DNA from: a virus
Strand: one strand, 5' to 3'
IMG/VR virus record: IMGVR_UViG_3300037475_000064
DNA: 64,000 bases
The notes under the pieces were generated by a model. That model saw nothing but the letters and a program-made list of their open reading frames with translations, did no database searches and was not told the origin of the DNA. This document shows positions 10,812-40,416 of this stretch, piece after piece. How positions within the stretch are numbered: the stretch's first letter is position 1; each line of letters opens with the position of its first letter. The position numbers were made by a program, and so were the translations under genes.

Positions 10812-11103
10812 AGTGCGTTCCGTTGCTGTTGAGACGGGGTCCTGCCCCGACCCGCACAACCTAGCCTTCGTCCCGGACGAACGCAAGAGCGCAATACGCG
10901 AGTGGTTAACGGAGGGTAAACGAACGGCCCGGCGAGCGTTAGCTCAGCCGAGCCGGTCATTCTCTCGACGGCCTCCGGTTAGGAACCGCCGCGTCTACAG
11001 CGCCCTTAGACGGGGAATGCGCGAAGGCACACGAGCCGACCCGCAGGACGCCTGCTTGGTAGGAGCCGACCGACGAAGCCGACCGCGAACGCCCGGCTCG
11101 GGC

Positions 11104-12822: not shown

Positions 12823-13189
12823 CGGCGTAGGCCCTCAGTTGATCTTGCAGCTTGGTGTTGATCTTTCCGGTTTTCATGAACTCATCGCAGAACGCAGCGC
12901 GGATTTCTTGTATGCGCGGAGGCGCGCTGTCTCGGGGCGGGCGGCCTCGGCCCCTAGACGTGTCTCGGGCCAGCGCAATCACTGGCTTGCCCCAGCGCGC
13001 TAGCCGCTCCGCTCTCGCGGCTTGACGCAGCGCTCGGGCCGCCGCCTGCCCGGGCTTAGGCTTGGGCACGTGGACCGGCTGACTGACTGCCCGCTCAAGG
13101 TCCCAGCCGTGCTCCAGCCGCATGTAGGCGCAGGCGTAGCTTATCCCCGCCGCGCGTGGCCGACCGTCGAGTTCGGGATGCTTAGACAT
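12644..13189 (-). CDS. putative DNA-binding protein (HTH-like N-terminus); 3' end uncertain
   Basis: N-terminal GISYACAYMRLEHGWDLERAV resembles NUMOD/HTH-type modules; C-terminal ~59 aa overlap the next gene and look low quality. Confidence 0.45.
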   Translation of the reverse strand: MSKHPELDGRPRAAGISYACAYMRLEHGWDLERAVSQPVHVPKPKPGQAAARALRQAARAERLARWGKPVIALARDTSRGRGRPPRDSAPPRIQEIRAAFCDEFMKTGKINTKLQDQLRAYADEHRSAKNNSRRVPVEQAAQCPSGRHSHMGNERGRSPDQTDVGSSREVAARIADYLRAG

Positions 13190-14669
13190 TGGTCCTCATC
13201 AAGAGATCGCGCAATCCACGACCGCTAAGGTCATCGGCAACCGTGGTCTTCCCATCGACGAGCGACCAGTTGCGATCATCGACCGTTCCCGGAGTTCGAA
13301 GACGGACGATAGTGACAGGATGCCCCCACTTCTCAGTCCCGCGTTCTTCTCCCTGATTGACGTGAATTGCGTTTGGAGTAGACGAGAAAAAGATGATTGC
13401 ATGCGCTCGGCTATAATCTTTTCCTTCGCCGCCGACAGCCGGATGCCCGACAAGCACGACGGGTCGATCACTGTTTTGAAACTGTAGTCGGATGGCCTCG
13501 CGCTTCGCCGTGGGGACGCCACCGTGCATTTCGAGGAACGGGATGCGCTCTTTCTTGAGCCGCCTGCAAACGCGAACGATGTCTTCTCGGTAGCGGCACC
13601 AAACGATAGAGTTCTCAGGAAACGTTCCTGTGATCTCATCAACGAGAGCGTCGTAGATCGGAGCCTCCGGGTCGATATCGATAATTTTGTCGTCATCTTT
13701 CACATACCCGTTGAGGATTTGCTGGAGCTTCTGCACTCTGGCCCCGCTGTCCTTGGCGCTGACCATGTCGTCGCCGATCTCGACGAGATGTCTGGAGACC
13801 ATCTCCAGATACGCTCGCCGCTGGACTTCACTCATAACAATGATCCGCTCGGTCCGCAATAGCTCAGGCATGCCCTCTACGTCGTCCCGGGTCACGACGC
13901 TCGACCACTGTGCCATTTTTGCCTGTAGCTCGCCAAGGTTCTTGTAGCCCTTGATCTTCCTATAGGCCCGACGCTTGGCGCGGTACGGCGGCGCGTTCGG
14001 GTCAACTTCCCAATCCGCGTATCGAGTGGCGAACTTCTCATAGGCGGGACCCGCGAACTCGGGACCGAGCGTGAGGTCGCCGAGAATTTTATAGATGGAA
14101 TAGGCGCGCAGGGGCGAGTTCAAGATCGCGGTGCCCGTCTCGACCGTGATGTACTTGGCGACCTTGCCGAGATTGCGCGCGAGCCGCGTGCGCTTCGCTC
14201 CGGCGCGACCGAAGTGATGGGCCTCGGAGATCACCAGCATGATCTTGCCATTGCACGCTTTGCGAAAGCGGCGGATGGCTTTGATGCAGTCCATATGCTG
14301 GAGCGCTTCCATATTGACGGTCAGATAGCGGATGCCGTCACGGTAGGCTTCGAACTTCTCCAGCGCAGCGATGCGGTCCCAGTCGGCGCGCTTCGGCGTC
14401 TCCCATCCGAAAGCCATATACTCGTTGATCGGCCACGACCAGCGCGGAATTTCGTTGAGGACCCAGTTGAGGTGAATGCCGTTTGGCGCGAGTACGACGA
14501 CGCCTTCGATGTTGCCATTGGCAAACTGATACTCGGCCTTGTCGATGACGGCTTTGGATTTGCCGGTCCGCATGGTCCAGAGCAGCGCGCGGCACCTATC
14601 GTCGCGGTGCTCGTCGAACTCTTTCTCTTGGTGTGCCCACGGCTTCTTAGCGTCGGAAGGGGTTGTCAC
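13182..14669 (-). CDS. SNF2/DEAD-like superfamily 2 helicase
   Basis: Walker A RTGKSKA, DEAH-like VISEAHHF, C-terminal helicase motif VGGEGKDYS...IIFFS. Confidence 0.8.
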   Translation of the reverse strand: MTTPSDAKKPWAHQEKEFDEHRDDRCRALLWTMRTGKSKAVIDKAEYQFANGNIEGVVVLAPNGIHLNWVLNEIPRWSWPINEYMAFGWETPKRADWDRIAALEKFEAYRDGIRYLTVNMEALQHMDCIKAIRRFRKACNGKIMLVISEAHHFGRAGAKRTRLARNLGKVAKYITVETGTAILNSPLRAYSIYKILGDLTLGPEFAGPAYEKFATRYADWEVDPNAPPYRAKRRAYRKIKGYKNLGELQAKMAQWSSVVTRDDVEGMPELLRTERIIVMSEVQRRAYLEMVSRHLVEIGDDMVSAKDSGARVQKLQQILNGYVKDDDKIIDIDPEAPIYDALVDEITGTFPENSIVWCRYREDIVRVCRRLKKERIPFLEMHGGVPTAKREAIRLQFQNSDRPVVLVGHPAVGGEGKDYSRAHAIIFFSSTPNAIHVNQGEERGTEKWGHPVTIVRLRTPGTVDDRNWSLVDGKTTVADDLSGRGLRDLLMRTNV

Positions 14670-15939: not shown

Positions 15940-18519
15940 TCATTTTCTTAGTCTTGGGCCGACCCAGCCTTCCGCCGTGATGGGCATGCCGGGAGCCCAG
16001 TCGGGCACCACGGACATGATTGCCTCAAAATCCTTGACAGCGCAAGTGCCTATAGGAGCCTCGGCAATAACTTCGTCGTGGATGGAAAGCAGCAAATCGA
16101 ACGGGTCTAGCTCGTCAACGCGAAGCATGGCTTCGGCGAGCAGATCGCGAGAGCTTGCTTGGTCATAATTTTCGACGAGAGAGCCGCCGTGAGTGCCGCA
16201 GCGTTTCCACTGTTTAGTGTATGTATCGCGGCCCATGAATGAAAGATGTGGAGAGACAAAACTCTCTGGCGGATCAGGCAACAGCCGCTTGTTCTGCTTC
16301 GCCGCCATCTTCTCGGCATGCCAACGAACTCGGTGCTGCGGCACGCTCTTCTTCGCGGGGAAGTTGACGGTAGTCGGTCGGCCCCGGGCGTTGAGCGCGG
16401 CGAAGCGATAGGTGACGCGCATGTTCACGCGCGGATAGAGATACGCCAGTAGGCGGCCCGAGGGCAGGCGACAGTGCAGGAAATTGCCGTCCGCGCTCAT
16501 GAAGTAGGAGACCGCGCCGTTGCCGAACTCGTCACCACCGCACCAATGCTCGCCACCTTCGATCACGGCAGCGATGGCCGCCTTCTCGGTAGAGCGCCAG
16601 AGCATCGGCACCTCGGGGTATTTCTCTTTGCGGTAGATACGGACCACCATCTGACAGAACTCGTCGTCGAGCCAAATACCCTCATCCATGTAGACCGTCG
16701 CTTGGAATTTCTCCCAGCCCATCGCGTAGCCGAGACCGAGGATGGCTTTCTTGCCGAGGTTACGCTCAGACTTGTCGGCCTTCGTGATCAGACGGCCATA
16801 GATGCCGCTCGCCATGTCGCAGTAGATGTCCTGCCCGGGCACGAACATCGCAAGCATCGCGGCGCAGCCGGAGAGCCACGCCAGCTTGCGTGCTTCGATG
16901 GCATTGAAGTCGGCGGCGTAGAGTTCTTTGTCCTCACTGGCGATCAGCGCACCGCGACAGGCTTTGGCCAATGCAACCATTGGCTCGCCCCACATGATGG
17001 TGACGAGTTCGCGGTCGAGCGACAGGATGTCGCGCCACGCGTCGCCCATTTCGTCGAGGCCGTCAGACGTAAGCTTCTTGTAGCCGCCGCCGTAGCCCCG
17101 GACGAAGTTGTGCGGCTGCACGCCCTTGCCTGACCAGCGTCCGGTACGGTCGGCCCCGTTATAGAGCATGATGTCGTGCAGGCGGCCATCCGGACACACG
17201 CTCTGCACCATGCGCTTGTACTTGGCGACCGATGAGCGGTTGACCTCCATGCAAATGCGGAGCGCCCGCTCGACCCGCGCGCCCTCTTCGCCCATGCTTT
17301 CCCACTTTGTCCGGGACGCGGGCAGCGCAGCCTCTTTAGCCTCGTCGCCTGCTTTGGTCGGGACGCCGTCGAGCGCGAAGCTGAGCGTATCGGCCTTGGT
17401 ATCGGCGAGGGGGTCCTGATCAAGCTCTACCAGCCGCCCATTGGCCCAACGCAGTAGGGCTGCACGTTGGCTCCCCTTCTCGACCGCACCGCCAGTGATC
17501 TCCGTAAGCTCGCCATTGAGCCGTTCGGCCTCCAGCGCGGCCAGCTTGAGGGCTTCCTCCGCAGCGGTCTTGTCTAGCCGGATGCCCCGCAAGTTCATGC
17601 GGAAATCCATCAGCCAATACTTCCGCTCTTGCTCGGGCATCTCCGGGCAAAAGTTCGACAGGCCGCGCTCGGCCCGCACGTCGCCCTTGCAGTATTCCCA
17701 GTTGCTACGGTGCTCGGCCTCTTCCTCGCAGAACTTAACTCCGTCTTCGGCGTCGCCGACGTGGCGCTCATAAGTCGCGAGCTTGGGCTTCAACTTGATC
17801 GCTGGTGGCTCCGTTAGCCATTCGTACTGGCCCTCTTCGGGATGGCCGAGGATGCCTTTGCGCTTCGCCAGTTCCTCATTGAGGAATTTACGGATCGAGC
17901 CCATCGCCGCAGGCTCTCCCGAATAGTAGTCCGGGAAGTAATTGTTGACGATCATCCGCTGTATTTCCTCGGCGTCTTCCGTGGTGAACGGCTCAGGGAA
18001 GAGCTTGAACAGTTCGGCCTTGAACAGATCGCGAGGCGTCGCCCCCGGCGTCAGCGCCTTGGGCGGTCGATTACGCATTGGCTTCGACAGCTTGTTGATG
18101 AGCCGCTTGCCGTCCGCGATCTTGTGATCGGGCAGGCCTAGTGCGCGGATGGCATCTTCAAGGCCACGGGGCAGCGACAGGCACGAAGCTTTGGCCGCCG
18201 AGCAGAACATCTGCTCAGGCTTTAGCTCGACATCGAACTCGGGAAATTCCCGGCGGAGCGTCTCGTTCCAGATGTTGAACTCAAAGCCTGCGTTGTGCGC
18301 CTCGACCGGCTCGCCGCTGCGGATGCGCTCGATAAGCTCATCCGGGCGCGGGCTCTTCCTGATCCACGGATGGTCGCGGTGCCAGAGATGTATCTCGTCT
18401 TCCTGATCGTAGGCCCACGCAAGACAGAGCGCCTGCGAGCTTGCATCCATGGCATAGCGCCGCTGTCCCCACTTGATGAGGTCGGCGGCGGACCGAGTTT
18501 CGAAGTCGAGTGTGATCAT
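15940..18519 (-). CDS. family A DNA polymerase with 3'-5' exonuclease domain
   Basis: Exo I LDFETRS; motif A DFNAIEARKLAW; motif B RNLGKKAILGLGYAMG; motif C SIHDEV; ATG at 18519 overlaps upstream stop (ATGA). Confidence 0.9.
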   Translation of the reverse strand: MITLDFETRSAADLIKWGQRRYAMDASSQALCLAWAYDQEDEIHLWHRDHPWIRKSPRPDELIERIRSGEPVEAHNAGFEFNIWNETLRREFPEFDVELKPEQMFCSAAKASCLSLPRGLEDAIRALGLPDHKIADGKRLINKLSKPMRNRPPKALTPGATPRDLFKAELFKLFPEPFTTEDAEEIQRMIVNNYFPDYYSGEPAAMGSIRKFLNEELAKRKGILGHPEEGQYEWLTEPPAIKLKPKLATYERHVGDAEDGVKFCEEEAEHRSNWEYCKGDVRAERGLSNFCPEMPEQERKYWLMDFRMNLRGIRLDKTAAEEALKLAALEAERLNGELTEITGGAVEKGSQRAALLRWANGRLVELDQDPLADTKADTLSFALDGVPTKAGDEAKEAALPASRTKWESMGEEGARVERALRICMEVNRSSVAKYKRMVQSVCPDGRLHDIMLYNGADRTGRWSGKGVQPHNFVRGYGGGYKKLTSDGLDEMGDAWRDILSLDRELVTIMWGEPMVALAKACRGALIASEDKELYAADFNAIEARKLAWLSGCAAMLAMFVPGQDIYCDMASGIYGRLITKADKSERNLGKKAILGLGYAMGWEKFQATVYMDEGIWLDDEFCQMVVRIYRKEKYPEVPMLWRSTEKAAIAAVIEGGEHWCGGDEFGNGAVSYFMSADGNFLHCRLPSGRLLAYLYPRVNMRVTYRFAALNARGRPTTVNFPAKKSVPQHRVRWHAEKMAAKQNKRLLPDPPESFVSPHLSFMGRDTYTKQWKRCGTHGGSLVENYDQASSRDLLAEAMLRVDELDPFDLLLSIHDEVIAEAPIGTCAVKDFEAIMSVVPDWAPGMPITAEGWVGPRLRK

Positions 18520-18764
18520 GCGAGATTGCGGGCGTCCCGAATTTCGACCGGCCCGGGAGTGCTGGACATCACGCGGAGCGTTGGCGTGAGCAGCGAGCGC
18601 AGTGCCTTCGAGAGGCATTCGCGCGCATCGCCGACATTCTTCACCGCGATGTGGCGCTCATGCTCGGAGCAGGCCGGGTTCGTCGCGACGACTTGCGCAA
18701 GCGTCAGGGCCTCAATGGCCTCCGTGACGAGTTCGATCTTAGTCTCTTGCTGAGGATTTGACAT
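18516..18764 (-). CDS. hypothetical protein
   Basis: 82-aa ORF coupled to the polymerase gene. Confidence 0.5.
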   Translation of the reverse strand: MSNPQQETKIELVTEAIEALTLAQVVATNPACSEHERHIAVKNVGDARECLSKALRSLLTPTLRVMSSTPGPVEIRDARNLA

Positions 18765-18902: not shown

Positions 18903-19532
18903 TTAGCCCAGATCGTCCTCGTCGCCGCTAGCGAGATCGTCATCCTCGGAGAAGCCCTCCGCAGGATCGTCACCGAAATCGTCCTCAGCAGACGTGAAGC
19001 CTTCGAAGCTCTCATCGTCGCCGACCTTCTGGAGGTTGCCGAGACCGATGGCCAGACCCTTGCCGATGTTGTTGAAGGGGTAAGGGTTGACCGACGCGCG
19101 AGCCCAGCAACCGGCGTAGAACTCTTCCGAGTTCTCGCTTGTGATTGCGTTGCCGCTCACGTCGAGGATTTGCGGGCGGCGCTTCGAGTTGGCCATGGAG
19201 AAGAACACCATGTCCGGGTCGCCGTAGCCCTGATAGTCCTTCTCACTGCCCTTGTGAAACGGAATTTTGAAGGACCGATCTTCCTTCATTTCCTTGATGG
19301 ACTTTTTGAAGAACTCTTTGCAGACCTCCGCGAGCTTGGTGCGGATGGCTTCCCACTTCGCCTTGTCGGCGTCAGTGAATTGCTTCGGATAGAAGAGACC
19401 GGTCAACGAGTACCGAGGGGTCCCGTTGTTGTAGCTGGCCTTCTCGAAGACTTGGGGGAAGCTGACACGGAATTTCGGGGTCAGCAGGCGGGAGCCCTTT
19501 TTGCCGGGCGCGGCTGTAGCGGTGCTTGCCAT
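18903..19532 (-). CDS. T7 gp2.5-like ssDNA-binding protein (DUF2815-like)
   Basis: 209 aa; N-terminal RLLTPKFRVSFPQVF pattern, highly acidic tail ...SEDDDLASGDEDDLG; sits next to polymerase. Confidence 0.65.
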   Translation of the reverse strand: MASTATAAPGKKGSRLLTPKFRVSFPQVFEKASYNNGTPRYSLTGLFYPKQFTDADKAKWEAIRTKLAEVCKEFFKKSIKEMKEDRSFKIPFHKGSEKDYQGYGDPDMVFFSMANSKRRPQILDVSGNAITSENSEEFYAGCWARASVNPYPFNNIGKGLAIGLGNLQKVGDDESFEGFTSAEDDFGDDPAEGFSEDDDLASGDEDDLG

Positions 19533-19587: not shown

Positions 19588-19616
19588 GTATTAACGAAAA
19601 ATTAACGATGTGTCAA
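19588..19616 (-). promoter_or_regulatory. sigma70-like promoter (TTGACA-17-TAATAC) for the SSB gene
   Basis: Near-consensus hexamers on the minus strand, about 55 nt upstream of the 19532 start. Confidence 0.6.
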
Positions 19617-20272
19617 GCGATAAATCCATGCCACGCAAAGAAAACCGCAGCGCCGAGAAGCGCGCCCGGGACGACATCCACGACATAATGCTGCTTCGTC
19701 TTGAGCGCGGAGATCGCGATCAGCAGCGGGAACGCCGCACAGATCACGCCCATGGTCGGCCAGTTCTTGCCGATGGTCAGATCAACCATCATGGCCACGC
19801 TGACGTGCATGCTCGGCAGCGAGTTGCGGAGCTTGTCGTAGCTCCATACGAGGTTGAGCATCCGCATTGAACGTGGCCAAAGCCGCTCCGCGATCTTCCG
19901 ATTAACGGACCCATAGTTTGAGCCGCGCACAAACCCGACCGGCATAAGTTCGCGCCACGTCGCCGGAATGGCGACCGGCCAAAGTACGAAGAACGTCACC
20001 TGTACCGCGAGCAGCGTGAGGAAGCAGCCGACGCAATAGGCGTATTCGCGCCACGTCGGCACGGACAGCGCCGCAAGCAGGATCATCGGGTAGTAGAGCC
20101 CGGAGTAAATCCACACCCATCTAGGATCGAAGTTGACCTTGCGGTCCCACGCGGTTTCGAAGTAGCGCGCGTCGAAGAACGTTTGCCGCTGAGCCCAGAA
20201 ATAAAACTGGTAGCCGCCGACGATGAGAACGACCGTGATGAATAGCTCAAGGATGCGATCAAACAGTTCCAT
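19613..20272 (-). CDS. PAP2-superfamily membrane enzyme (PAP2_3 / IPC-synthase-like)
   Basis: 219 aa, about 6 TM helices; LPSMH (C2-like) and KQHYVVDVVPG (C3-like) motifs. Confidence 0.6.
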   Translation of the reverse strand: MELFDRILELFITVVLIVGGYQFYFWAQRQTFFDARYFETAWDRKVNFDPRWVWIYSGLYYPMILLAALSVPTWREYAYCVGCFLTLLAVQVTFFVLWPVAIPATWRELMPVGFVRGSNYGSVNRKIAERLWPRSMRMLNLVWSYDKLRNSLPSMHVSVAMMVDLTIGKNWPTMGVICAAFPLLIAISALKTKQHYVVDVVPGALLGAAVFFAWHGFIA

Positions 20273-21843: not shown

Positions 21844-22055
21844 CGCGTCACCTTCACGTCCGAAAGATAGACGCTGAGATACGGCACTTCATTGGCCATG
21901 AAGAGCATCAGCTTGTCCGCGAGAACTTTGCGCATCTCGTCGGCTTCGCTGCGCATCAGCACGCCCGGCTCGACCGCAATCGTCGCGCTCAGGTCCACGC
22001 GCATGCGGTTCTTGCTGACGGCCCTGACGTTCACTCGGCGGATAAATTGGGGCAT
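21840..22055 (-). CDS. hypothetical protein
   Basis: 71-aa ORF coupled to the nuclease gene. Confidence 0.5.
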   Translation of the reverse strand: MPQFIRRVNVRAVSKNRMRVDLSATIAVEPGVLMRSEADEMRKVLADKLMLFMANEVPYLSVYLSDVKVTR

Positions 22056-23341
22056 TACATGAAGTCCTCTTCGTCGTCATCCGCGAACTCGTTGGCCGCG
22101 TCGTCGAGGGCGCTCGCGGCCTCGCGCGGATCATGCTCCGGCGCAATCGTCAGCGCGCCGTTCGGCATGAACGCCAGTTCCTTGACAGCGGCCTTGACGA
22201 GTTTGCGTTGCTCTTTGCCGACGCCGAGCTTCTCCAGTTGCGCTGGCGTCTTGAGCTTCGGCGCGACGAGAAGGTCATCCTCGGGCAGGCCGAGGTCGTC
22301 GATAAATTTTTCCTTGACTGCGACTTCGCTGATCCAACGGCGTTTCGATTTGCCCCGGACAAGCTTCCAGCCGGGCACCTCGTTGCCGTTCTCAAGCTCA
22401 CGCTGGATGTCAGCCTTGATGTTGCCGACCCATGCTTCGATCACGGGGACCCATTCCATCTTGTGGGCAAGTTCTGCTGTGCTCTTCGGCGTCGGCAGCA
22501 TGGCGGGCGGCTCGTCGTCGGCGAAATCCACCTGAGCCTCTTCGAGCAGCATAGCGTCGTATTCTTCGCAACGCGTCTTGGCCGGACACCACAGGCACCA
22601 ATCTCCAGCGCGCAACCGAGCATTTGGTTTTGAAGTTTCATCGGCTGCACGCTTCATCTCGATTTCATACAGCTTCAATTCGTCCGCAGTAAAGGTCTCC
22701 GACCGGATCAGGCCCTCGGCATGCGGCGCGTTCGGCTGCGAGATCGTAACCGTGACGCCCTCGGCGTCGGGATGCTCGTGCAGCAGAAAAACGCCGTATT
22801 GTTTTAGTTGATCATTGTCTTTCGCTTCGACGAGGATGTAGCCGTTCTTGTGGTCAACGAGATTGATCCAACCGAACGGCTCGACCAGCGTCACGTCCGC
22901 CGTGCCGCCGAGGCGGCTGTCAAGCCACTTGCCGTCAAGATATCGCTCCGAGAAAATCTCAGTGCCCTCGGCCATTTCCAGCTTGAGCCGGTCTACTTCA
23001 TCAATGGTTTGCTGCACGCCTTCGACCATCTTCTCGTCGGCGATGAACATGAACCATCCCGGGCGGGCGTGATCGGGGTCGAGCGCGGGCTCGCCGGGCG
23101 GGTAGTATTCGGTCTCGTGGTCCTCTCCATCGTCGCCGCCATACACGAGGAAGGTCGAGCCGTGGTACTCGCGCGCCTCGTGGTGATCATTCTGGATCAT
23201 GATCTCGATAAGCTTGTGCGCGGCAGTGCCGAGCATCGCGGCCTGATTTGTCGTCGAGCTTTCGTCGCCCACGAGAGCGACGGAGCCGGGACAGTTCATC
23301 CATCGATGCGAGGATGAGGGGGACAGCTTGGCGTGAGCCAT
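22055..23341 (-). CDS. PD-(D/E)xK exonuclease, DUF2800/Cas4-like
   Basis: N-terminal LSPSSSHRWMNCPGS, core DHKNGYILVEAKDNDQLKQY, C-terminal Cys cluster CLWCPAKTRC. Confidence 0.7.
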   Translation of the reverse strand: MAHAKLSPSSSHRWMNCPGSVALVGDESSTTNQAAMLGTAAHKLIEIMIQNDHHEAREYHGSTFLVYGGDDGEDHETEYYPPGEPALDPDHARPGWFMFIADEKMVEGVQQTIDEVDRLKLEMAEGTEIFSERYLDGKWLDSRLGGTADVTLVEPFGWINLVDHKNGYILVEAKDNDQLKQYGVFLLHEHPDAEGVTVTISQPNAPHAEGLIRSETFTADELKLYEIEMKRAADETSKPNARLRAGDWCLWCPAKTRCEEYDAMLLEEAQVDFADDEPPAMLPTPKSTAELAHKMEWVPVIEAWVGNIKADIQRELENGNEVPGWKLVRGKSKRRWISEVAVKEKFIDDLGLPEDDLLVAPKLKTPAQLEKLGVGKEQRKLVKAAVKELAFMPNGALTIAPEHDPREAASALDDAANEFADDDEEDFM

Positions 23342-27180: not shown

Positions 27181-27424
27181 GAGGTCGGTCTCCAGTGAGG
27201 TTGAAAAGAAGTTTGACGGCGCGATCAAGTCTTGTCGAAAGTCGTTTCGCCCGGATGCTCTTGATCACGTCGTTGTAGCGAGACTGGGCGAGACGTTTCT
27301 TCTCGGGATGCGCCACGTGATAATCACGGTGGCGGAGCGCAGTCCGTTTTCGGCTGCACTCATGCGAACACGTTTTCCAATTTTTGTGCGAGGCGAACTC
27401 CGCGCCGCAGGATGAGCATATCAC
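27092..27424 (-). CDS. zinc-ribbon protein, first gene of leftward block (3' end uncertain)
   Basis: GTG start; CSSCG...CSHEC; last ~30 codons overlap the next gene. Confidence 0.4.
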   Translation of the reverse strand: MICSSCGAEFASHKNWKTCSHECSRKRTALRHRDYHVAHPEKKRLAQSRYNDVIKSIRAKRLSTRLDRAVKLLFNLTGDRPHDHYRTIIRRKTRGRTDRDGSRDTRPHVG

Positions 27425-27552
27425 GTGGAGGCACCAATTTCAGACACCACATGCGGTATACCGAGCCGCGAAAATTGTCAAGAGCCTCAAAATGCTTGCA
27501 TTCGTTAACTTTTGATGGTAGTGACCATGTCCCAATCCCCCGGAAAGGTCCT

Positions 27553-29916
27553 ATGATTAGACAGCGTACCCTTGACCTCGCGTGGGAATATGTAGAGCGG
27601 CACCTGTATCGCCGCTATCTTTTTCCGATCAAGCCCGGCGCAAAATTTCCGCCGCTGATCAAGAACAATCTCGAAGACGCATCGTGTGATCCTGAGCAGC
27701 TTCGCGCGTGGGAGGCGAAATGGCCCGGATGTAATTGGGGCGTCGCGCACCGCAAATCGGAGTTGATGGTCGCCGACATTGACGTGAACAAGCTCAAAGG
27801 CAAAGTCGGTCAGGCCACCTTCGATGGCCTCGACCTGATCTACGGTTGGCCGCCGACCGAGATGACCACGACGCCGTCCGGCGGCTGGCACATGATATAC
27901 GAAGGTTGGGCCAACGAGAACCACCCCGCTCACATCATGGCGCTCGGCGAGAACGGCATCGGCAAGGACATCGACAGCCCGAACTATACGCTGATCCCGG
28001 GCTGCACGTTTGACGATGGCACGTCCTACGTCGGCAACGACGCCGAAGCCGTCAAGTGCCCAGAATGGATATACGACACCATCAAGAGTGCGAAGACCAA
28101 GAGCCGCGTCACGGACGCAGGCGAGGTCGTCATTGAACTCGACCAGCAAGCCAACATCGAACTCGCGATTGACTTCCTCCAGAATGACGCCGCGCCATCC
28201 ATCCAAGGCTCAGGCGGCGACTTCAATCTGCTCAAGGCCGCCTACTACCTCAAGGACATCGGTATCTCGCAAGGGCTCGGCGCAGAACTCTTGAACGAAT
28301 ACTTCAATCCGCGTTGCGAGCCCGCGTGGGACGTGGCCGATCTCGAAAAGAAGATGGCGGGCGCGTACAGCTACGCCAATCTCTCGAAGGTAGGCGGAAA
28401 GACAGCCGAGGCCGACTTCGCCGACGAGCCGCCAGAAGCCCCAATAGAGCCGATGGGCATCTGGGACAACGAGACAAAGTCCTACAAGAAGGACCCGAAG
28501 CGGCTCAAGGGTCAGGTCAAAGCGCGAGCCAAAGTGCGTAAGCGTGAAGAGGGAAAGCTCGACGACCCGAAACGGGCGAAGACAAAGGCCAACGTCCTCG
28601 ACCAGTTCGTATGGGTCGTCGGCATGGAGCGGTTCATCAACATCGTGGACCCGGTCGGAAACGATGAACGCGACATCTGGAAACGCTCGCAGTTCGACAG
28701 CGAGTTCAACAAGATTTGGTTTCCCGCACCGAAGCGCGGCAGTGCATCGGATTTCCTGCTCCGCGTCCCCAAGGGCGGCTTGCAAAGCTTCTACCGTGTC
28801 GCGTTCAAGCCCGGGCAGCCGCGTTCGCTCGACGGCGGGCTGGCGTTCAATATGTACCGCGCGCCCGATGTGGTGCCTGTCGAGGGCGACCTCGCGTGGT
28901 GGGATGCTCATCTCGAATACCTGTTCCCGGAAGAGACCTATCGAAACCATCTCTTGGATTGGATGGGTTGGCTTGTGCAGAACCTCGACAAGAAACCGAA
29001 GCACGCGCTGATCATTCAGGGCGAGGTCAACGGCACGGGCAAGAGCTTCATCGGCAAGGTGCTCGCCCGCATTCTGCACGAGGCGAACGTCTCCATCGTT
29101 CCACAGAACGGGCTCTCGGGCCGGTTCAACTCGTGGGCTCTCCAGTGCAAGCTCATCCTGATCGAAGAGTTGCGCGCCTCTGACAAGCGCGCGGTCAAGG
29201 AAGCTCTGCACGACATTATCACCGAGGACCGCATCAACGTCGAAAAGAAAGGCGTCGATAGCATGATGGTCGATACCTGTTTCGGCGTCATGGCCTTCAC
29301 CAACGACGACGCCGCGCTCGACCTCGACAACACCGACCGCCGCTACCTCGTGATCCGCACCGACCGCACTGAGGCCGAGGCGCTTGCGCTGTCGGCGCAG
29401 GGCTACTTCATCCGGCTCTTCGCCAAGCTTGAGGACCCGACCGCGATGGCCGCCGTCGCCTACGCGCTCATGAACCGCGATCTCAAGGGCTACAACGGGC
29501 AGGCCGCCGCACCGAAGACCGAGGCAAAGGGTGGCATGAAGAAAGCCGCGATGAGCGACCTTGAGCATCACCTCGACGAGAACCGGGGCGAGTGGCCGCT
29601 CTCCAGCCGCCTCGTGACCATTGAGGACGTGATCTCATCGCTACCGAAACGTATCGAGCAGAAGGGCTACCGGCTGCACGGTACGATCAAGAAGTTCCTG
29701 TTGACCGACCTCGACGGCATTGACCTCGGCCAGTGCACGACGCCGAGTGGCAAGAAACCGCGCCTGTACGCCATCAACGGCGCGGGCAACATCCTGTCGG
29801 CCCAGCCGCGCACCGTAGCGGGCAAAGTCTACGAGGACGACAAGGTCCGGGCTGGCAAGAACCAACCGCTCGAAGACATCGACGACGCCGCCAGTGAGTT
29901 CGACGGAAAAGAATAG
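27553..29916 (+). CDS. bifunctional prim-pol primase / D5-type SF3 helicase
   Basis: N-terminal prim-pol motifs (VADIDV, GGWHMIY), central D5_N-like region, P-loop GEVNGTGKSF; ATG at 27553 with GGAAAGG RBS. Confidence 0.85.
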   Translation: MIRQRTLDLAWEYVERHLYRRYLFPIKPGAKFPPLIKNNLEDASCDPEQLRAWEAKWPGCNWGVAHRKSELMVADIDVNKLKGKVGQATFDGLDLIYGWPPTEMTTTPSGGWHMIYEGWANENHPAHIMALGENGIGKDIDSPNYTLIPGCTFDDGTSYVGNDAEAVKCPEWIYDTIKSAKTKSRVTDAGEVVIELDQQANIELAIDFLQNDAAPSIQGSGGDFNLLKAAYYLKDIGISQGLGAELLNEYFNPRCEPAWDVADLEKKMAGAYSYANLSKVGGKTAEADFADEPPEAPIEPMGIWDNETKSYKKDPKRLKGQVKARAKVRKREEGKLDDPKRAKTKANVLDQFVWVVGMERFINIVDPVGNDERDIWKRSQFDSEFNKIWFPAPKRGSASDFLLRVPKGGLQSFYRVAFKPGQPRSLDGGLAFNMYRAPDVVPVEGDLAWWDAHLEYLFPEETYRNHLLDWMGWLVQNLDKKPKHALIIQGEVNGTGKSFIGKVLARILHEANVSIVPQNGLSGRFNSWALQCKLILIEELRASDKRAVKEALHDIITEDRINVEKKGVDSMMVDTCFGVMAFTNDDAALDLDNTDRRYLVIRTDRTEAEALALSAQGYFIRLFAKLEDPTAMAAVAYALMNRDLKGYNGQAAAPKTEAKGGMKKAAMSDLEHHLDENRGEWPLSSRLVTIEDVISSLPKRIEQKGYRLHGTIKKFLLTDLDGIDLGQCTTPSGKKPRLYAINGAGNILSAQPRTVAGKVYEDDKVRAGKNQPLEDIDDAASEFDGKE

Positions 29917-31800: not shown

Positions 31801-31914
31801 GGGGCGATTGTTAATCGTGGATGGGTAGCGTGTGGTTGACCAGTCTTAGCGATGGTTCTGAATGTCAGGACGGACCGTGATCAGACGCGGGGGCAGTACC
31901 CGCCGCCTCCACCA
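31801..31914 (+). ncRNA. ssrA: tmRNA acceptor piece (3' tRNA-like half ending CCA); 5' boundary uncertain
   Basis: T arm GCGGG-GGCAGTA-CCCGC (31887-31903), acceptor 3' strand CGCCTCC (31904-31910), ACCA (31911-31914). Confidence 0.7.
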
Positions 31915-32075
31915 CGGACAGCGCGAAGCGGTATGGATACCGTGCATCGAATATGCGACGCCTCTTCGTAGGGTCTCGCGCTGTCTCTGATGGGGGCGAA
32001 CTAGGATCGATGGGCACGACGAAGTCAGGAAGTGAACCCGGCATGATACCGCCGACATCGGGTCAAAAACTAAAT

Positions 32076-32120
32076 GTGAACGACAACGTTCCCATGACCG
32101 AAATGCGCCTCGCGGCGTAA
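32076..32120 (+). other. tmRNA tag reading frame VNDNVPMTEMRLAA-stop
   Basis: GUG AAC GAC AAC GUU CCC AUG ACC GAA AUG CGC CUC GCG GCG UAA, preceded by CAAAAACUAAAU (compare the remembered E. coli AAAAAAUAGUC-GCA). Confidence 0.6.
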
Positions 32121-32159
32121 GCGGTTGGGGTTAGTCCACCTAGCAACAGAATGGCTCGT

Positions 32160-32194
32160 ATCGCCCGGCGCGCAAGCTCCGGGCGATTTGCGTT
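32160..32194 (+). terminator. intrinsic terminator of the tmRNA unit
   Basis: ATCGCCCGG / CCGGGCGAT stem then TTTGCGTT; overlaps the stop of the convergent HNH gene. Confidence 0.65.
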
Positions 32195-32624
32195 AGAAGG
32201 GAATGTCCTCGGGAGCCGGGCGAGCGGGAGCGCATGGGCGGGCAGTTCTGCGGTTCTGGGATGGGGTCGCCCACGTCAGGTTCTCGCGCTCGCAGTTCAA
32301 GCTATCGCCGTCCCCGTGGTCGCCCATGGTGTGTCTATGGCTCGGCTGAGCCTTCCCGGTCCGTTTAAGGACCTCTTTGTGCAGATAGAGCTTGATCCGG
32401 CGATGCGCTGCCCCGTCCGTGGTAGAGCGCGTGGCGTATGCTTTTCGCTTATGCCGGTCCCACGTGATCTGCCATTTCCATTGCAGCGCCCACGCGTAGT
32501 CATCGAAAGAGACCGTCGCATATATCCCGCGCTCAACGTCGAGCCAGATGCGATGCTCCGCCGAAGACCTCGTCAGATGTGAAGTCGGTATGGTAGGGCA
32601 GGCCGCAGCGTTGACATCTACCAA
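32193..32624 (-). CDS. HNH homing-type endonuclease (start uncertain)
   Basis: GDHGDGDSLNCERENLTWATPSQN HNH core; upstream AP2-like IWLDVERGIYATVSFDDYAW; TTG start in the track; ends ...PEDIPF. Confidence 0.7.
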   Translation of the reverse strand: MVDVNAAACPTIPTSHLTRSSAEHRIWLDVERGIYATVSFDDYAWALQWKWQITWDRHKRKAYATRSTTDGAAHRRIKLYLHKEVLKRTGKAQPSHRHTMGDHGDGDSLNCERENLTWATPSQNRRTARPCAPARPAPEDIPF

Positions 32625-33298: not shown

Positions 33299-33513
33299 TT
33301 CTGGACCCGATCATGCCGACGCGCCGTGCTCTTCCTAGCTTTGGCCCGCCGTTCGTTCTCGGCCTTGAACGCCTCGTCGCACGCCTCTTTGCCGTGCTCC
33401 ATGACGAACTTGTTGAGATTAAGCCGCGCCTTGATACGCTCCAGTTGGTTGCGAGAGCCGCAACCGTCCACGAGCGCGTTGAACTTCCTGCGTTGGGCGG
33501 GCGTCAGGATCAT
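33295..33513 (-). CDS. hypothetical protein (72 aa)
   Basis: ATG at 33513 (MILTPAQRRKFNAL...) with ATGA overlap. Confidence 0.45.
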   Translation of the reverse strand: MILTPAQRRKFNALVDGCGSRNQLERIKARLNLNKFVMEHGKEACDEAFKAENERRAKARKSTARRHDRVQK

Positions 33514-34097
33514 GACGGGCTCTGCCAGTGTGCCCAGACTTGCCACGCCTGCACGATGCAATCATAGACCGGCTCGTGTGCTACGCCCGGGATGTCGAGC
33601 GCGTCGCCGATGGGCACGAGGCGCATCGCCGGGGTCTCGCGGCAGAACGTCCGCATGTCGCGCGGAGCCTGATAGTGCCACATATTGTCCTTACTGATGC
33701 CGATGTCCTCAGCGAGGCCGATGATGTTGCTGAGATCGAATTGTGTGCCGTTGGCCCAGACGCGCGTCCGGCCCTCGCAGAACTTCTGCACGAGCCCAAT
33801 GGCTTCGTGTGGCGAATGATGTTCGTCGGCATCAACCCAATGCCGCGATGCCTCGTAAGGCTGCTTGGCCCAAAATTCCTGAGTGCTGACATCGACACGG
33901 CGACCGAGCGCGAGTTGCGCCGGGATGTCGAGCACGAGCAGCGAACGCTTGCCGACGAAAAGCTGCTTGAGCGGCGCGGGGTCAAACTCGATCATGCCGA
34001 TGCTCAGGATCAGCGCCTTGTGCGGATGCAGCGACATGGTTTCGATGTCAAGCATCACGTGCTCGTAGGGCGTTTCAGAAGGGGATGTCGTCGTCAT
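33510..34097 (-). CDS. DEDDh 3'-5' exonuclease (DnaQ-like)
   Basis: MLDIET (Exo I), ANGTQFD (Exo II), HEPVYDC (Exo III, H-x4-D). Confidence 0.75.
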   Translation of the reverse strand: MTTTSPSETPYEHVMLDIETMSLHPHKALILSIGMIEFDPAPLKQLFVGKRSLLVLDIPAQLALGRRVDVSTQEFWAKQPYEASRHWVDADEHHSPHEAIGLVQKFCEGRTRVWANGTQFDLSNIIGLAEDIGISKDNMWHYQAPRDMRTFCRETPAMRLVPIGDALDIPGVAHEPVYDCIVQAWQVWAHWQSPS

Positions 34098-34494
34098 CGT
34101 CGGCTCCGGGAGTTGGCTGCGGTCGTTGATGCGAGGCAGCCCGCCTTCGGGCGATCTCGATACTGTGCGGGAAGCCGAGTGGCTTGCGGTCGGCGTCCAT
34201 TTGCTGAATTGTATAGCCCAGACGCGCCGCGTGTGTCAACCATCGGCGCGCTGTCTCTTTATCGGCGCACTCAATGCCGACCCGGTCCTTGCGCGACCAA
34301 TCGTAATGCAGCGGGCAGGCGAGGTTCTTCGGCGGCCTGATATCGTGATTGATTGAGAAGCGGAACGGCTTCTCAGTCAGCGCCAGACATTTCTCGGCGA
34401 GCATGAGCGCGACCTGTCGGTCATCGAACGCGGGCGTGATCTCCAGCAGCTTTTGCGAGATCGATTTCTTGTGCATGCCCTTTAGGACGCCCAC
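34075..34494 (-). CDS. hypothetical protein ending in SSB-tip-like DDDDDIPF
   Basis: 139 aa, no OB-fold SSB signature seen; C-terminus ...PGADDDDDIPF verified codon by codon. Confidence 0.55.
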   Translation of the reverse strand: MGVLKGMHKKSISQKLLEITPAFDDRQVALMLAEKCLALTEKPFRFSINHDIRPPKNLACPLHYDWSRKDRVGIECADKETARRWLTHAARLGYTIQQMDADRKPLGFPHSIEIARRRAASHQRPQPTPGADDDDDIPF

Positions 34495-37830: not shown

Positions 37831-38032
37831 TTGGGCGTTTGGGGTCGATTTTCACTGTTTTTGGGTCGGATTTCATTTTCGCCGACCCGCATAAACATTG
37901 GGTTTCTTGCATCGCGGAGGCCCGAAAACAGGGTCTTTTTCGGTCGCTAATCGGTCGTCCGCTGGGGGCCGCGATAAACCTTAACTCTTGCTAACGTGCT
38001 CTGATCAAAGCTCAATTCGGCGCGCGGCCCAA

Positions 38033-38121
38033 TTTCTCACCTCTTTTCATTTCTCACCTATTTCTCACCAAATTTCTCATCTTATGTCGTTGATAACACA
38101 ACAATTTCTCACCTTCTCACC
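38033..38121 (-). repeat. iterons: 5-6 copies of the same 9-mer in opposite orientation (TTTCTCACC)
   Basis: Copies at 38033, 38050, 38061, 38073 (degenerate), 38105 and 38114. Confidence 0.8.
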
Positions 38122-38174
38122 TCTTTTACATATTCTTTAGTGAGTATGGTGTGTGTATAGGAGTTGACGAATTT

Positions 38175-38191
38175 GGTGAGAAGGTGAGAAA
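38175..38191 (+). repeat. iterons: 2 adjacent GGTGAGAA(A) copies
   Basis: GGTGAGAAGGTGAGAAA. Confidence 0.7.
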
Positions 38192-38220
38192 TCGGGTCAC
38201 TTTTGGGGCCTTTGGCTCAT

Positions 38221-38590
38221 GCAAGGGGTAGCTGCTATTAGGGTTAATTTAGAGTTAAGATAAACCCTGCATCGTGGCGTTTTAACCTTAACAGTTAAGA
38301 TTAATGCGCACGAAGGCCCCTGTGGCGGCTATTAACCCTATCAATTAACCTTAATTTAGGGGTTGTAGGCCCCTAAAGGCTTGATATTATTAACTTTTAT
38401 TCTTTACGTTAATCGCTTAGCCCTGCGTATAGCGCATGCACTCATGCACATGCATCCATATCCCCTTGATATCATTACACTATTGTCGTGATGTTCCATA
38501 CTATATGTTATGCGAATTGACGTTAACCTTAATCACTATGCATTAACCTAAATTGTTTACGTTAATCGCTATTAGTAGTGCTCGAAGCAT
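38221..38590. repeat. AT-rich repeat region (TTAACCTTAA x3, TTTACGTTAATCGCT x2, palindromes)
   Basis: TTAACCTTAA at 38282, 38345 and 38523; 15-mer at 38403 and 38556; GCTATTAGGGTTAA / TTAACCCTAT inverted; ATGCA triplet at about 38435-38452; clearly lower GC than its flanks. Confidence 0.75.
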
Positions 38591-38810
38591 TGACCCCTCC
38601 ACAAGATGGTGCTACCCTAGCCTCGCAGAGATAGGCCGTAGGACCCAGATTTTGCATCGAAGCGCCAGACGCAATGTCCCCCTGCTCGCACACACCGCCT
38701 CGATTTTGAACCGAAATTTAGAAAAATAAAAATATGAGGATTAAGAAAAACTCTTGCCTCCCCAAATTTTTCGTGCTAGGGCAACCTGACAATTTCACAA
38801 GGTCCCCAAC

Positions 38811-39653
38811 GTGACGCGCCTGAGCACATCATCCCCGACGAGGTTCTTCACCGGCAAGCCATGCGTGCGCGGCCACATCGCCGAGCGCTTGATCAGCAAC
38901 AACGGCTGCGTCGTCTGTCAGAACGAACGGAAGGCGAAGCGCGGCCAGTCGCCGGACTATCGCGCCCGCCGCAACGCCCGGCTGAAACGCAAGCGCGATG
39001 AGCGGCGGGAGCCGAGGATATGTGCGGTTTGCTTCGGGGCCTTCGACGCGCAAGAGGGCAACCGCTTCGCGGCTAGGACCTGTTCGCCCGAGTGCGGCGA
39101 GACGTTCTATGCGCGCAACCGCAAAAAGCAGCCGGACAAAGAATGCGATCACTGCTTCGCGATGTTCGCGTCGCGCAACCCGGCGCAGCGTGCGTGCTCG
39201 CCCCAGTGCAGGGCCGCGCTCGAAGCCGAGCAGCGGGCGGCTCGGACCAAGCCGTGCGTCAAATGCGAGACAGTGTTCAACCTGAGCAGCGACGACAACG
39301 GGCGCAATGGCTTTTGCTCAGACGAGTGCCGGGGTGAGGCCCGTGCAGAGCGATGCGCCTCCGCGTACCAGCGGCTCCGCATCCACAAGCCCGAGGTCAT
39401 CGTCGCGAGGAAAGCCCGATACCGACTTAACCAGCCCGAGGCGTTCATGCGTACTCGGAAAACCATCAACAACCGTCGTGTCGCTGGCGAGACCGCCGCG
39501 TATGAGGTCGCGAAGCAAATGATCCCTGACGCGCTGGCCGGTCTTCCCGGCTATCGTGCCAAGGTTCGCGCGTCTGTCGAGTTCTTGCGTTCGATAGGTA
39601 TGAACCCCAGCAAGCCAACGGAGAAAACTGATGTCCCCCTTCGATCAACTTAA
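38811..39653 (+). CDS. multi-zinc-ribbon protein, first gene of the rightward operon
   Basis: GTG start; FTGKPCVRGH...NGCVVC plus four further C-x2-C/CS-x-EC units, basic linkers. Confidence 0.6.
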   Translation: MTRLSTSSPTRFFTGKPCVRGHIAERLISNNGCVVCQNERKAKRGQSPDYRARRNARLKRKRDERREPRICAVCFGAFDAQEGNRFAARTCSPECGETFYARNRKKQPDKECDHCFAMFASRNPAQRACSPQCRAALEAEQRAARTKPCVKCETVFNLSSDDNGRNGFCSDECRGEARAERCASAYQRLRIHKPEVIVARKARYRLNQPEAFMRTRKTINNRRVAGETAAYEVAKQMIPDALAGLPGYRAKVRASVEFLRSIGMNPSKPTEKTDVPLRST

Positions 39654-40416
39654 AGCCGACATGATCATCCCGCTCATTAAGAGCAACCCGACAGCATCCG
39701 ATAGCGAACTCTTCCGGCTCGCTGTTCGACACTTCGAGAAGAACGAAGGGTCTCGGCAACTGTGCTACGAGTATTTTATCAAGAACGCGCTACTCTCGGT
39801 CGAGCGTGTCAAGCCGCAGGGCGACAACTCAATCGCCGTGCTGCCGCGTGCGCGTGCGAGCGCCCCCGCTCCGGCTCCAGTTCGCGCGGAGGTCGAGCAT
39901 CGTGTGGCCACACCCCAGACCCGTAAGACGATTGTCGAACAGGTTCGTCGCGATGCGCCATCCGCGCCCGCGCCGGTACAGAAAAAGATCGTCGAGGAAG
40001 TCACGAAGCAGTTCGAACGTCCGCTTGTGCGGGCGTCGATTGCGACTGAGGCGGCGCATAACATCCCAGCTAATCCGCACCGGATGCCCGTCGCCCGAGA
40101 GCAAGCGGTCGTCGCCGCTGTTGCCAAGGCGGTAGCAGTTGAGGTGCCGAAAGCTATCGCGAAGATCGACCGCGTCGAGCAAATGAAGGTCGAGGCGATT
40201 GCCTGCGTCCTGCTCGACTATGTATTGCCAGATGGCACGCCGGTCCGCGATGCTACGTTCGGTGCTCTGGCGAAACTCGGCGGTTGGGCGACTGCCGTCT
40301 CCAAGCTCGGCCCGGCGAATGCCAAGGTCGGCGGCCTGCGCGGCGTCAGCGAAGAGACGTTGCAGAACATCATGCGCCGCTTCACCGATGAGACCACCTC
40401 GCGCCGCGTCGCATAA
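39631..40416 (+). CDS. hypothetical protein
   Basis: 261 aa, GGAGA RBS. Confidence 0.6.
   Translation: MSPFDQLKADMIIPLIKSNPTASDSELFRLAVRHFEKNEGSRQLCYEYFIKNALLSVERVKPQGDNSIAVLPRARASAPAPAPVRAEVEHRVATPQTRKTIVEQVRRDAPSAPAPVQKKIVEEVTKQFERPLVRASIATEAAHNIPANPHRMPVAREQAVVAAVAKAVAVEVPKAIAKIDRVEQMKVEAIACVLLDYVLPDGTPVRDATFGALAKLGGWATAVSKLGPANAKVGGLRGVSEETLQNIMRRFTDETTSRRVA

Follow-up and report, generated by a model that had tools for sequence, protein, structure and literature searches.

A bacterial SSB-type tail on an orphan phage protein may act as a portable docking module

The tip-bearing protein

IMGVR_UViG_3300037475_000064 is a viral record in IMG/VR, of which we analysed a stretch of 64,000 nucleotides, hereafter the window. 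It carries a small gene whose 139-amino-acid product ends in the acidic tail of the bacterial protein SSB, which binds single-stranded DNA. In bacteria this C-terminal tail, SSB-Ct, inserts its terminal Ile-Pro-Phe and free carboxylate into a hydrophobic pocket flanked by basic residues, which is found in at least 17 partners (described in part in PMC10018359). The window belongs to a tailed phage that has not been cultivated and that encodes replication proteins of its own; it may not span the whole genome. The features discussed here are collected in Table 1.

The gene for the tip-bearing protein has the properties of a genuine coding sequence. A Shine-Dalgarno-like GGGAG lies 7 nucleotides 5′ of its GTG start, and its composition is coding-like, with a GC content of 0.75 at third codon positions (GC3) versus 0.44 at second positions (GC2), a pattern shared by the remaining genes of the window, whose GC content is 60%. 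The protein terminates in ...RPQPTPGADDDDDIPF, then TGA. Its last six residues, DDDIPF, are the SSB-Ct consensus, and they stand at the extreme C-terminus with the stop codon next to them. The original prediction, made from the sequence letters alone, had read this ending as DDDDDIPF, and correctly so (codons at 34078-34101). Such an ending is not expected by chance: 0.0023 C-terminal DIPF strings would be expected among the 755 six-frame open reading frames (ORFs) of at least 50 amino acids in the window, and two are observed (P ~3e-6). The translations of these ORFs contain no further DIPF string. The 139-amino-acid protein and an HNH-like nuclease, described below, are the only products found in the window that end in the tip.

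The body that carries the tail is not that of a bacterial SSB. Its AlphaFold2 model, built with 32 homologues as input, is confident (mean predicted local distance difference test score, pLDDT, 87.9; predicted template modelling score, pTM, 0.76) and comprises four helices (residues 12-17, 25-38, 79-91 and 112-123) and six strands. Confidence drops after the body, to a pLDDT of 78 and then 58 for residues 121-139. Pfam gave only a sub-threshold match to DUF6894 (E 0.03), PHROGs gave no match, and the Enc34_ssDNA-bd family (PF10991) does not match this protein, being found elsewhere in the window (18903-19532). A phmmer search across the window with E. coli SSB detected no canonical SSB and nothing significant (E = 2). 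Foldseek found no neighbour for the model in PDB or BFVD (best E 0.1-0.28, TM-score below 0.42), and the best 50 matches in each database include no SSB and no oligonucleotide/oligosaccharide-binding (OB) fold entry. A profile of the family found nothing in the PDB sequence set, and a search of the window for a paralogue found none.

The absence of an OB-fold SSB signature, noted in the original prediction, is thus borne out by Pfam, PHROG, phmmer, AlphaFold2 and Foldseek alike. The structure of the N-terminal domain, which that prediction had proposed to model, is predicted to be alpha+beta with no OB-fold neighbour among the best 50 Foldseek matches. We consider an OB-fold bacterial SSB ruled out, given the lack of a Pfam or PHROG match, the phmmer result and the alpha+beta model. 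The protein combines a body of pI 9.8 with an acidic tail, and the median pI of its family is 9.4. As modelled, its layout is that of SSB, a folded basic domain followed by a flexible linker and an acidic tip, built on a different, orphan fold.

Table 1. Features of the window, with coordinates, strand and supporting details
Feature	Position	Strand	Details
Gene of the 139-amino-acid tip protein	34075..34494	-	GTG start, TGA stop; 32 homologues with alignment
Basic alpha+beta globular body, orphan family	34126..34461	-	residues ~12-123; pI 9.8; pLDDT 86-97 in every ten-residue block
Short Pro/Gln-rich flexible linker	34102..34125	-	residues 124-131, RPQPTPGA; pLDDT falling from 78 to 58
Acidic tip DDDDDIPF, free C-terminus	34078..34101	-	contains SSB-Ct hexapeptide DDDIPF; D136, I137, P138, F139 near-invariant
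DEDDh 3′-5′ exonuclease, Rv2179c-like	33510..34097	-	Pfam E 3.8e-23; PHROG 255 exonuclease E 5e-39
HNH-like nuclease with Pro/Arg-rich linker and EDIPF end	32193..32624	-	tip codons 32196-32210; ends ...ARPAPEDIPF
Alpha-type permuted (two-piece) transfer-messenger RNA (tmRNA)	31804-32161	+	Rfam alpha_tmRNA, full-length, 122.5 bits, E 9.5e-34
PrimPol-DUF5906 primase-helicase	27412..29916	+	gene type accompanied by tip-less relatives of the body domain
DUF2800 PD-(D/E)XK nuclease	22055-23341
Enc34/gp2.5-type SSB	18903..19532	-	Pfam Enc34_ssDNA-bd E 8.5e-33; acidic tail ...SGDEDDLG
Family-A polymerase (PolA)	15940-18618		best relative Roseobacter phage RDJL3, 43% identity
SNF2-type helicase	13182-14669

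Conservation and carriers of the tip

A search of 5.8 billion proteins recovered 32 homologues of the tip protein, all of them unnamed metagenomic proteins. D136, I137, P138 and F139 are kept in 30 of the 31 full-length orthologues, while the linker that precedes them varies in both length and sequence. The homologues that do not conform are one ending in DDDILY and one frameshifted fragment. Codon usage in the tail differs synonymously among ten loci (GAC/GAT, ATC/ATT/ATA and CCC/CCG, to which the tails of the HNH-like nucleases add CCA and TTT), and all three stop codons are in use after the tail. These synonymous changes, together with a freely variable linker beside a retained tip, indicate that the tail is under selection at the peptide level. 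The original prediction had named lack of tail conservation in orthologues as part of what would refute it; the tail is conserved there and, in the wider family, in 48 of 142 cluster representatives, following the pattern [DE]-[DE]-[ILV]-P-F. No relative was found in cultured phages, either by megablast with the region or by tblastn with the protein (50,697 phage records), nor in 185,579 reference genomes by pattern scan. Four IMG/VR contigs encode the tip protein, and to date every known member of the family is metagenomic.

The body domain extends well beyond these orthologues. Searched against 1.84 billion cluster representatives, a profile recovered a family of 145 clusters, and no Pfam domain was found in any of 142 representatives. 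The tip, as DDDIPF or DDEIPF, is present on the 48 representatives mentioned above and missing from the other 94, and is thus a module that can be had or lacked independently of the body. In all three informative tip-less contexts, the body gene lies just upstream of a superfamily 3 (SF3) primase-helicase gene on the same strand. One of these is an integrase-bearing element with PrimPol/VapE; in another the body gene overlaps a DUF5906 helicase gene; and in the third it lies two ORFs upstream of a VapE-like gene. Judged by this company, the body domain seems to be an accessory to the replication modules of mobile elements and not an inert carrier. That tip-less body domains accompany primase-helicase genes also makes an inert decoy scaffold a less attractive proposition.

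The second tip-bearing product, an HNH-like nuclease, was absent from the original prediction. Its match to Pfam HNH_3 (E 7.8e-5, 22.7 bits) falls under the gathering cut-off of 24.8, and its matches to PHROG HNH families reach E ~1e-3. Six of its homologues have a precomputed PF13392 match, one is labelled HNH endonuclease by NCBI, and H82, H103, N115 and N124 are invariant in the family. The AlphaFold2 model is confident and gives weak Foldseek matches to I-PpoI (E ~1). In approximately 58 of 73 homologues a variable linker rich in Pro and Arg leads to a [DE]-[ILV]-P-[FY] end, and distant homologues, for example from Bradyrhizobium, end directly after the catalytic core, without linker and tip. 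The tipped nuclease and the tipped 139-amino-acid protein occur together in the window and in the relatives L004, L007/L008 and L009. Because of this co-occurrence, we read the tip as a module, attached in the present phage lineage to two or more unrelated proteins.

The same tip is found on many other viral proteins. We searched IMG/VR for DNA in which codons for DDDIPF stand directly before a stop, as a sample and not a census, taking ORFs of at least 55 amino acids with approximate starts. Among the matches listed, 34 of 113 DDDIPF-ending ORFs are canonical SSBs, as recognised by an iterated hidden Markov model (HMM) seeded with E. coli SSB. The other 79 listed ORFs form 38 clusters, and 69 are annotated; the annotated non-canonical set includes the SSB-named PHROGs 18154, 7364, 743 and 6015, which the SSB HMM missed. 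Also ending in DDDIPF among the matches listed are superfamily 2 (SF2) helicases (ResIII/DEAD, phrog_16 and phrog_62; L017, L052, L081, L086 and L095), DUF669 proteins and many PHROGs of no assigned function, where PHROG names are annotations and not tests. A clamp-like processivity factor (phrog_947; L094), a DnaB_C fragment (L127) and Pam3_Gp34-like proteins (L025/L046) share this ending. The tip therefore appears to be widely grafted among phages, with the 139-amino-acid family as one of many carriers. A survey of phage proteins ending in DIPF had been suggested in the original prediction; non-canonical carriers do prove widespread in viral contigs, and the present case is consequently less singular than it looked.

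Neighbouring genes and the probable host

The tip-protein gene overlaps the start of the gene for a DEDDh exonuclease, just as the original prediction described. The exonuclease matches its Rv2179c-like profile at 82.5 bits, against a curated cut-off of 27. Its ATG (34095-34097) arises out of frame from the tail Asp codons GAT-GAC, which gives an overlap of 23 nucleotides, and a later in-frame ATG at 34055 may instead be the true start. Comparable overlaps of 17-20 nucleotides are present in L001 and L004. Adjacency of the two genes is confined to the six closest relatives, in two of which a small ORF is intercalated, and the distant tip-bearing loci L137 and L138 have no exonuclease gene within ~2.5-6 kb on each side. 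We reject gene overlap as the driver of tail conservation, since the tip is retained where the exonuclease gene does not overlap it (L132/L133, L137 and L138) and in the HNH family. The candidacy of the exonuclease as a universal receptor of the tip is weakened by the restriction of adjacency to the closest relatives.

The SSB encoded by the phage itself is of the Enc34/gp2.5 type. The original prediction held that it lacks a terminal aromatic residue, and it does, ending in DEDDLG. A PAP2-superfamily (membrane phosphatase-like) gene (19613-20272, minus strand) adjoins the phage SSB gene in the replication module. Known SSB-Ct binders, such as RecT and chi, are absent among the Pfam and PHROG families detected in 64 scanned ORFs of the window.

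An alpha-type tmRNA gene sits between the HNH ORF and a 307-amino-acid ParB-like ORF, on the opposite strand. ARAGORN reported no tRNA or tmRNA in the window, and the gene was found by Rfam instead. It is also present in the relatives L001, L004, L009 and L132, and phage-encoded alpha-type tmRNAs have precedent (PMC9004378). The conservation of an alpha-type tmRNA in these four relatives suggests that the host is alphaproteobacterial. A scan for sigma-70 promoters at 33-39 kb returned 0 sites, which is uninformative for a probable alphaproteobacterial phage.

Minus-strand ORFs of positions 1-38000 include single Pfam matches to Tad3 (a Thoeris inhibitor, E 1.3e-24), HIRAN, SprT-like, a GNAT acetyltransferase and the N-terminal domain of a dATP/dGTP diphosphohydrolase, and PHROG matches to dNMP phosphatases. 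These matches suggest roles in anti-defence and in the nucleotide pool, with DNA modification as a further possibility. A 562-amino-acid protein (9198-10886, minus strand) combines an AAA ATPase domain with AAA_lid_3 (FtsH/Cdc48-type). GC content dips to 0.546 at 38001-40000, where the minus-strand early/replication block meets the plus-strand block, and this stretch could hold a divergent control or origin region.

Docking, its alternatives and known systems

We favour the reading that the tail is a portable mimic of the host SSB tip, by which an accessory protein of phage replication would dock onto the host's SSB partners and so bridge them to the ligand of the body. We hold this reading at slightly less than even confidence. 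The original prediction, in which the protein could hijack SSB-interacting host enzymes or compete for them with host SSB, is plausible in this light. The basic alpha+beta domain would represent an undescribed family that travels, in phages and small mobile elements, with SF3 (VapE/DUF5906) primase-helicase genes. The domain would be joined by a flexible tether of ~10 residues to D-D-D-I-P-F-COOH, a short linear motif presumably gained by mimicry. The tip is predicted to enter the hydrophobic pocket and basic ridge of SSB-interacting proteins, and candidate partners are the chi subunit of Pol III, PriA, RecQ, ExoI, RecJ, RNase HI, Topo III, Ung and DnaG. With the single-stranded DNA (ssDNA) of the phage coated by its tip-less Enc34/gp2.5-type SSB, the tail would tether the body and its ligand, which is probably either DNA or the primase-helicase module of the phage, to a single one or a few of these host proteins. 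The short tether would place the body directly on the partner.

Several observations favour docking. A ligand for SSB-Ct pockets would be the simplest account of an identical, conserved and exposed terminal peptide on a tether. The tail variants of the family, DDDIPF and DDEIPF, are each found on bacterial SSBs: E. coli SSB ends in FDDDIPF, whereas LDDEIPF ends the SSB of Rhodobacter sphaeroides and is the SSB tail in 5,795 of 18,841 alphaproteobacterial assemblies (PMC13490951). Docking is further favoured because the body is a conserved companion of replication modules, because an enzyme of the same phage, the HNH-like nuclease, shares the tip, because the phage SSB lacks it, and because a short tether would seat the body on its partner. 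Since both the 139-amino-acid protein and the nuclease carry the exact bacterial SSB tail, they probably plug into the host SSB network. More specifically, we infer that the tip would bind the SSB-Ct pocket, that the partner would be a host protein, and that the outcome would be recruitment and not pure blockade. A more general formulation, in which the portable tip has been grafted on orphan folds, HNH nucleases, SF2/DnaB-type helicases and clamp-like factors, and the present family adapts SF3 primase-helicase modules to the host SSB interactome where the phage SSB has dropped its tip, is possible, though we regard it as less likely than not.

A number of points weigh against docking on host partners. 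The phage has its own PolA, primase-helicase, SSB and nucleases, and so no obvious need for a host partner. The logic would also be reversed relative to SSB, in that the tip would bring a protein to the enzymes and not the enzymes to ssDNA. The association of the body with primase-helicase genes is known from three contexts only. In the closest relatives the tip gene is translationally coupled to a DEDDh exonuclease, a member of the superfamily of the SSB partner ExoI. A receptor encoded by the phage is possible by analogy with T7 polymerase, which binds acidic C-tails, and with Sak4, which binds an SSB tail. Finally, the role of a pure competitor would fit the conservation of the tip equally well.

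As such a competitor, the 139-amino-acid protein would be an abundant early product that saturates the SSB-Ct pockets of ExoI, RecJ, RecQ, PriA, chi and DnaG. Host replication restart and repair would be shut down and phage DNA ends protected, with the body serving as a soluble, possibly oligomeric carrier. This would suit a strongly conserved tip identical to the host motif, and a gene located in a block of small uncharacterised genes, as is typical of early or take-over regions, in distant relatives too. A tip-less phage SSB would in addition spare phage ssDNA from the competition. However, a mere carrier would not be expected to occur without its tip beside primase-helicase genes, the same tip is present on an enzyme, and each chain offers a single tail on a short tether. 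On balance, we judge a pure decoy to be rather unlikely. Alternatively, the receptor could lie within the phage replisome, where PolA or the DEDDh exonuclease would receive the tails of the 139-amino-acid protein and the HNH nuclease, much as T7 gp2.5 and gp4 tails dock on basic patches of gp5 and SSB docks on ExoI. The phage does have a PolA, the acidic C-tail of T7 gp4 does bind gp5 basic patches (PMC12593628), a phage Sak4 depends on the six C-terminal residues of its SSB (PMC5928155), and in each of the six closest relatives the exonuclease gene adjoins the tip gene or overlaps with it. Yet the tail is the exact host consensus and not a private phage motif, the tail of the phage SSB is different (DEDDLG), and L137 and L138 lack a nearby exonuclease gene. 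The same tip also recurs in viral contigs that are not related to one another, on dozens of families without kinship, for which a shared host receptor is the simpler explanation. A phage-encoded receptor seems improbable to us.

The body might itself bind nucleic acid, as an SSB analogue or origin binder of novel fold that displays the host tip on phage DNA. Its basic character (pI 9.8), the conserved residues F46, W66, W85, Y94, R53, R116 and R118, the body-linker-tip layout shared with SSB and the association with replication genes all agree with this idea, as does the occurrence of the same tip on many non-canonical phage 'SSB' PHROG families. Against it, neither Foldseek (PDB and BFVD) nor the PDB profile search detected similarity to a DNA-binding fold, and the phage already has an SSB. 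We give this possibility little credence in its own right; it would be a special case of the adaptor model, compatible with docking. The remaining explanation, that the tail arose by chance or as a side effect of the exonuclease start codon that overlaps it, can draw on the fact that the exonuclease ATG is built from the GAT-GAC Asp codons. That ATG constrains only two of the eight tip codons, however, and the tip persists at loci without overlap and in the HNH family. Against an expectation of 0.002 per window, two such endings are observed. The conservation data effectively refute this explanation, to which we assign next to no probability.

If the tip is indeed a portable module, it would amount to a general strategy of host takeover, for which we found no description in the literature searched. 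The SSB tip is a hub that organises bacterial replication restart, recombination and repair, and it is also a drug target. Tipped non-SSB phage proteins would then be natural, evolved ligands of the SSB-Ct pocket, useful as tools or inhibitor leads. They would reveal, too, by what means a phage that has an SSB of its own continues to engage or silence the genome-maintenance enzymes of the host. Since tipped phage SSB-like proteins have recently been linked to the triggering of the defence system DRT10, tip-bearing non-SSB proteins, too, are candidates for triggers or counter-measures. A peptide of 10-15 residues, for example QPTPGADDDDDIPF, would suffice for a direct test of docking.

Two elements of this proposal are already known, namely the SSB-Ct docking motif and the viral mimicry of host linear motifs. 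New are the carrier fold, the tipped nuclease with which it is paired and the wide range of carriers that our survey brought up. In the literature searched we came across OB-fold cases and work on proteins that bind SSB, but no paper describing a host-type tip on a phage protein other than an SSB. The closest likeness is to bacterial SSB-Ct itself, with which the present tail shares an identical terminal hexapeptide, a free C-terminus, a preceding acidic run and flexible linker, and a tip far better conserved than the linker. In bacterial SSB, however, the carrier is an OB-fold and the linker comprises ~55 residues (E. coli), whereas here the carrier is a 139-amino-acid alpha+beta orphan with a linker of ~10.

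Phage T7 offers a second comparison. It too has a family-A polymerase and a gp2.5-fold SSB, and its gp4 and gp2.5 show how an SSB-like acidic tail on a non-SSB replication protein can act as a docking element. Work from the Richardson laboratory on T7 tails reportedly established a requirement for the terminal Phe. The T7 motif is nevertheless private to the phage and binds the phage polymerase, while the tail described here is the exact host consensus and differs from that of the phage's own SSB.

Phage-encoded SSB-type tips have also been described on SSBs. Bas52_0087 is an OB-fold SSB-like phage protein that ends in FDDDIPF and triggers DRT10 (bioRxiv 10.64898/2026.04.29.721553), and the SSB of phage HK620 has the tail NDYPPF (PMC5928155). 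As in the present case, such a tip is a proposed interface with host ssDNA-processing enzymes (ExoI/SbcB) or with phage partners. Both of these proteins are OB-fold SSBs, unlike the non-OB carrier found here, which shares its genome with a tipped nuclease. More generally, viruses mimic host short linear motifs, and a terminal disordered peptide of a host hub can be grafted onto unrelated proteins. The tail of the 139-amino-acid protein would be an example of such mimicry in a bacterial virus, aimed at the SSB hub.

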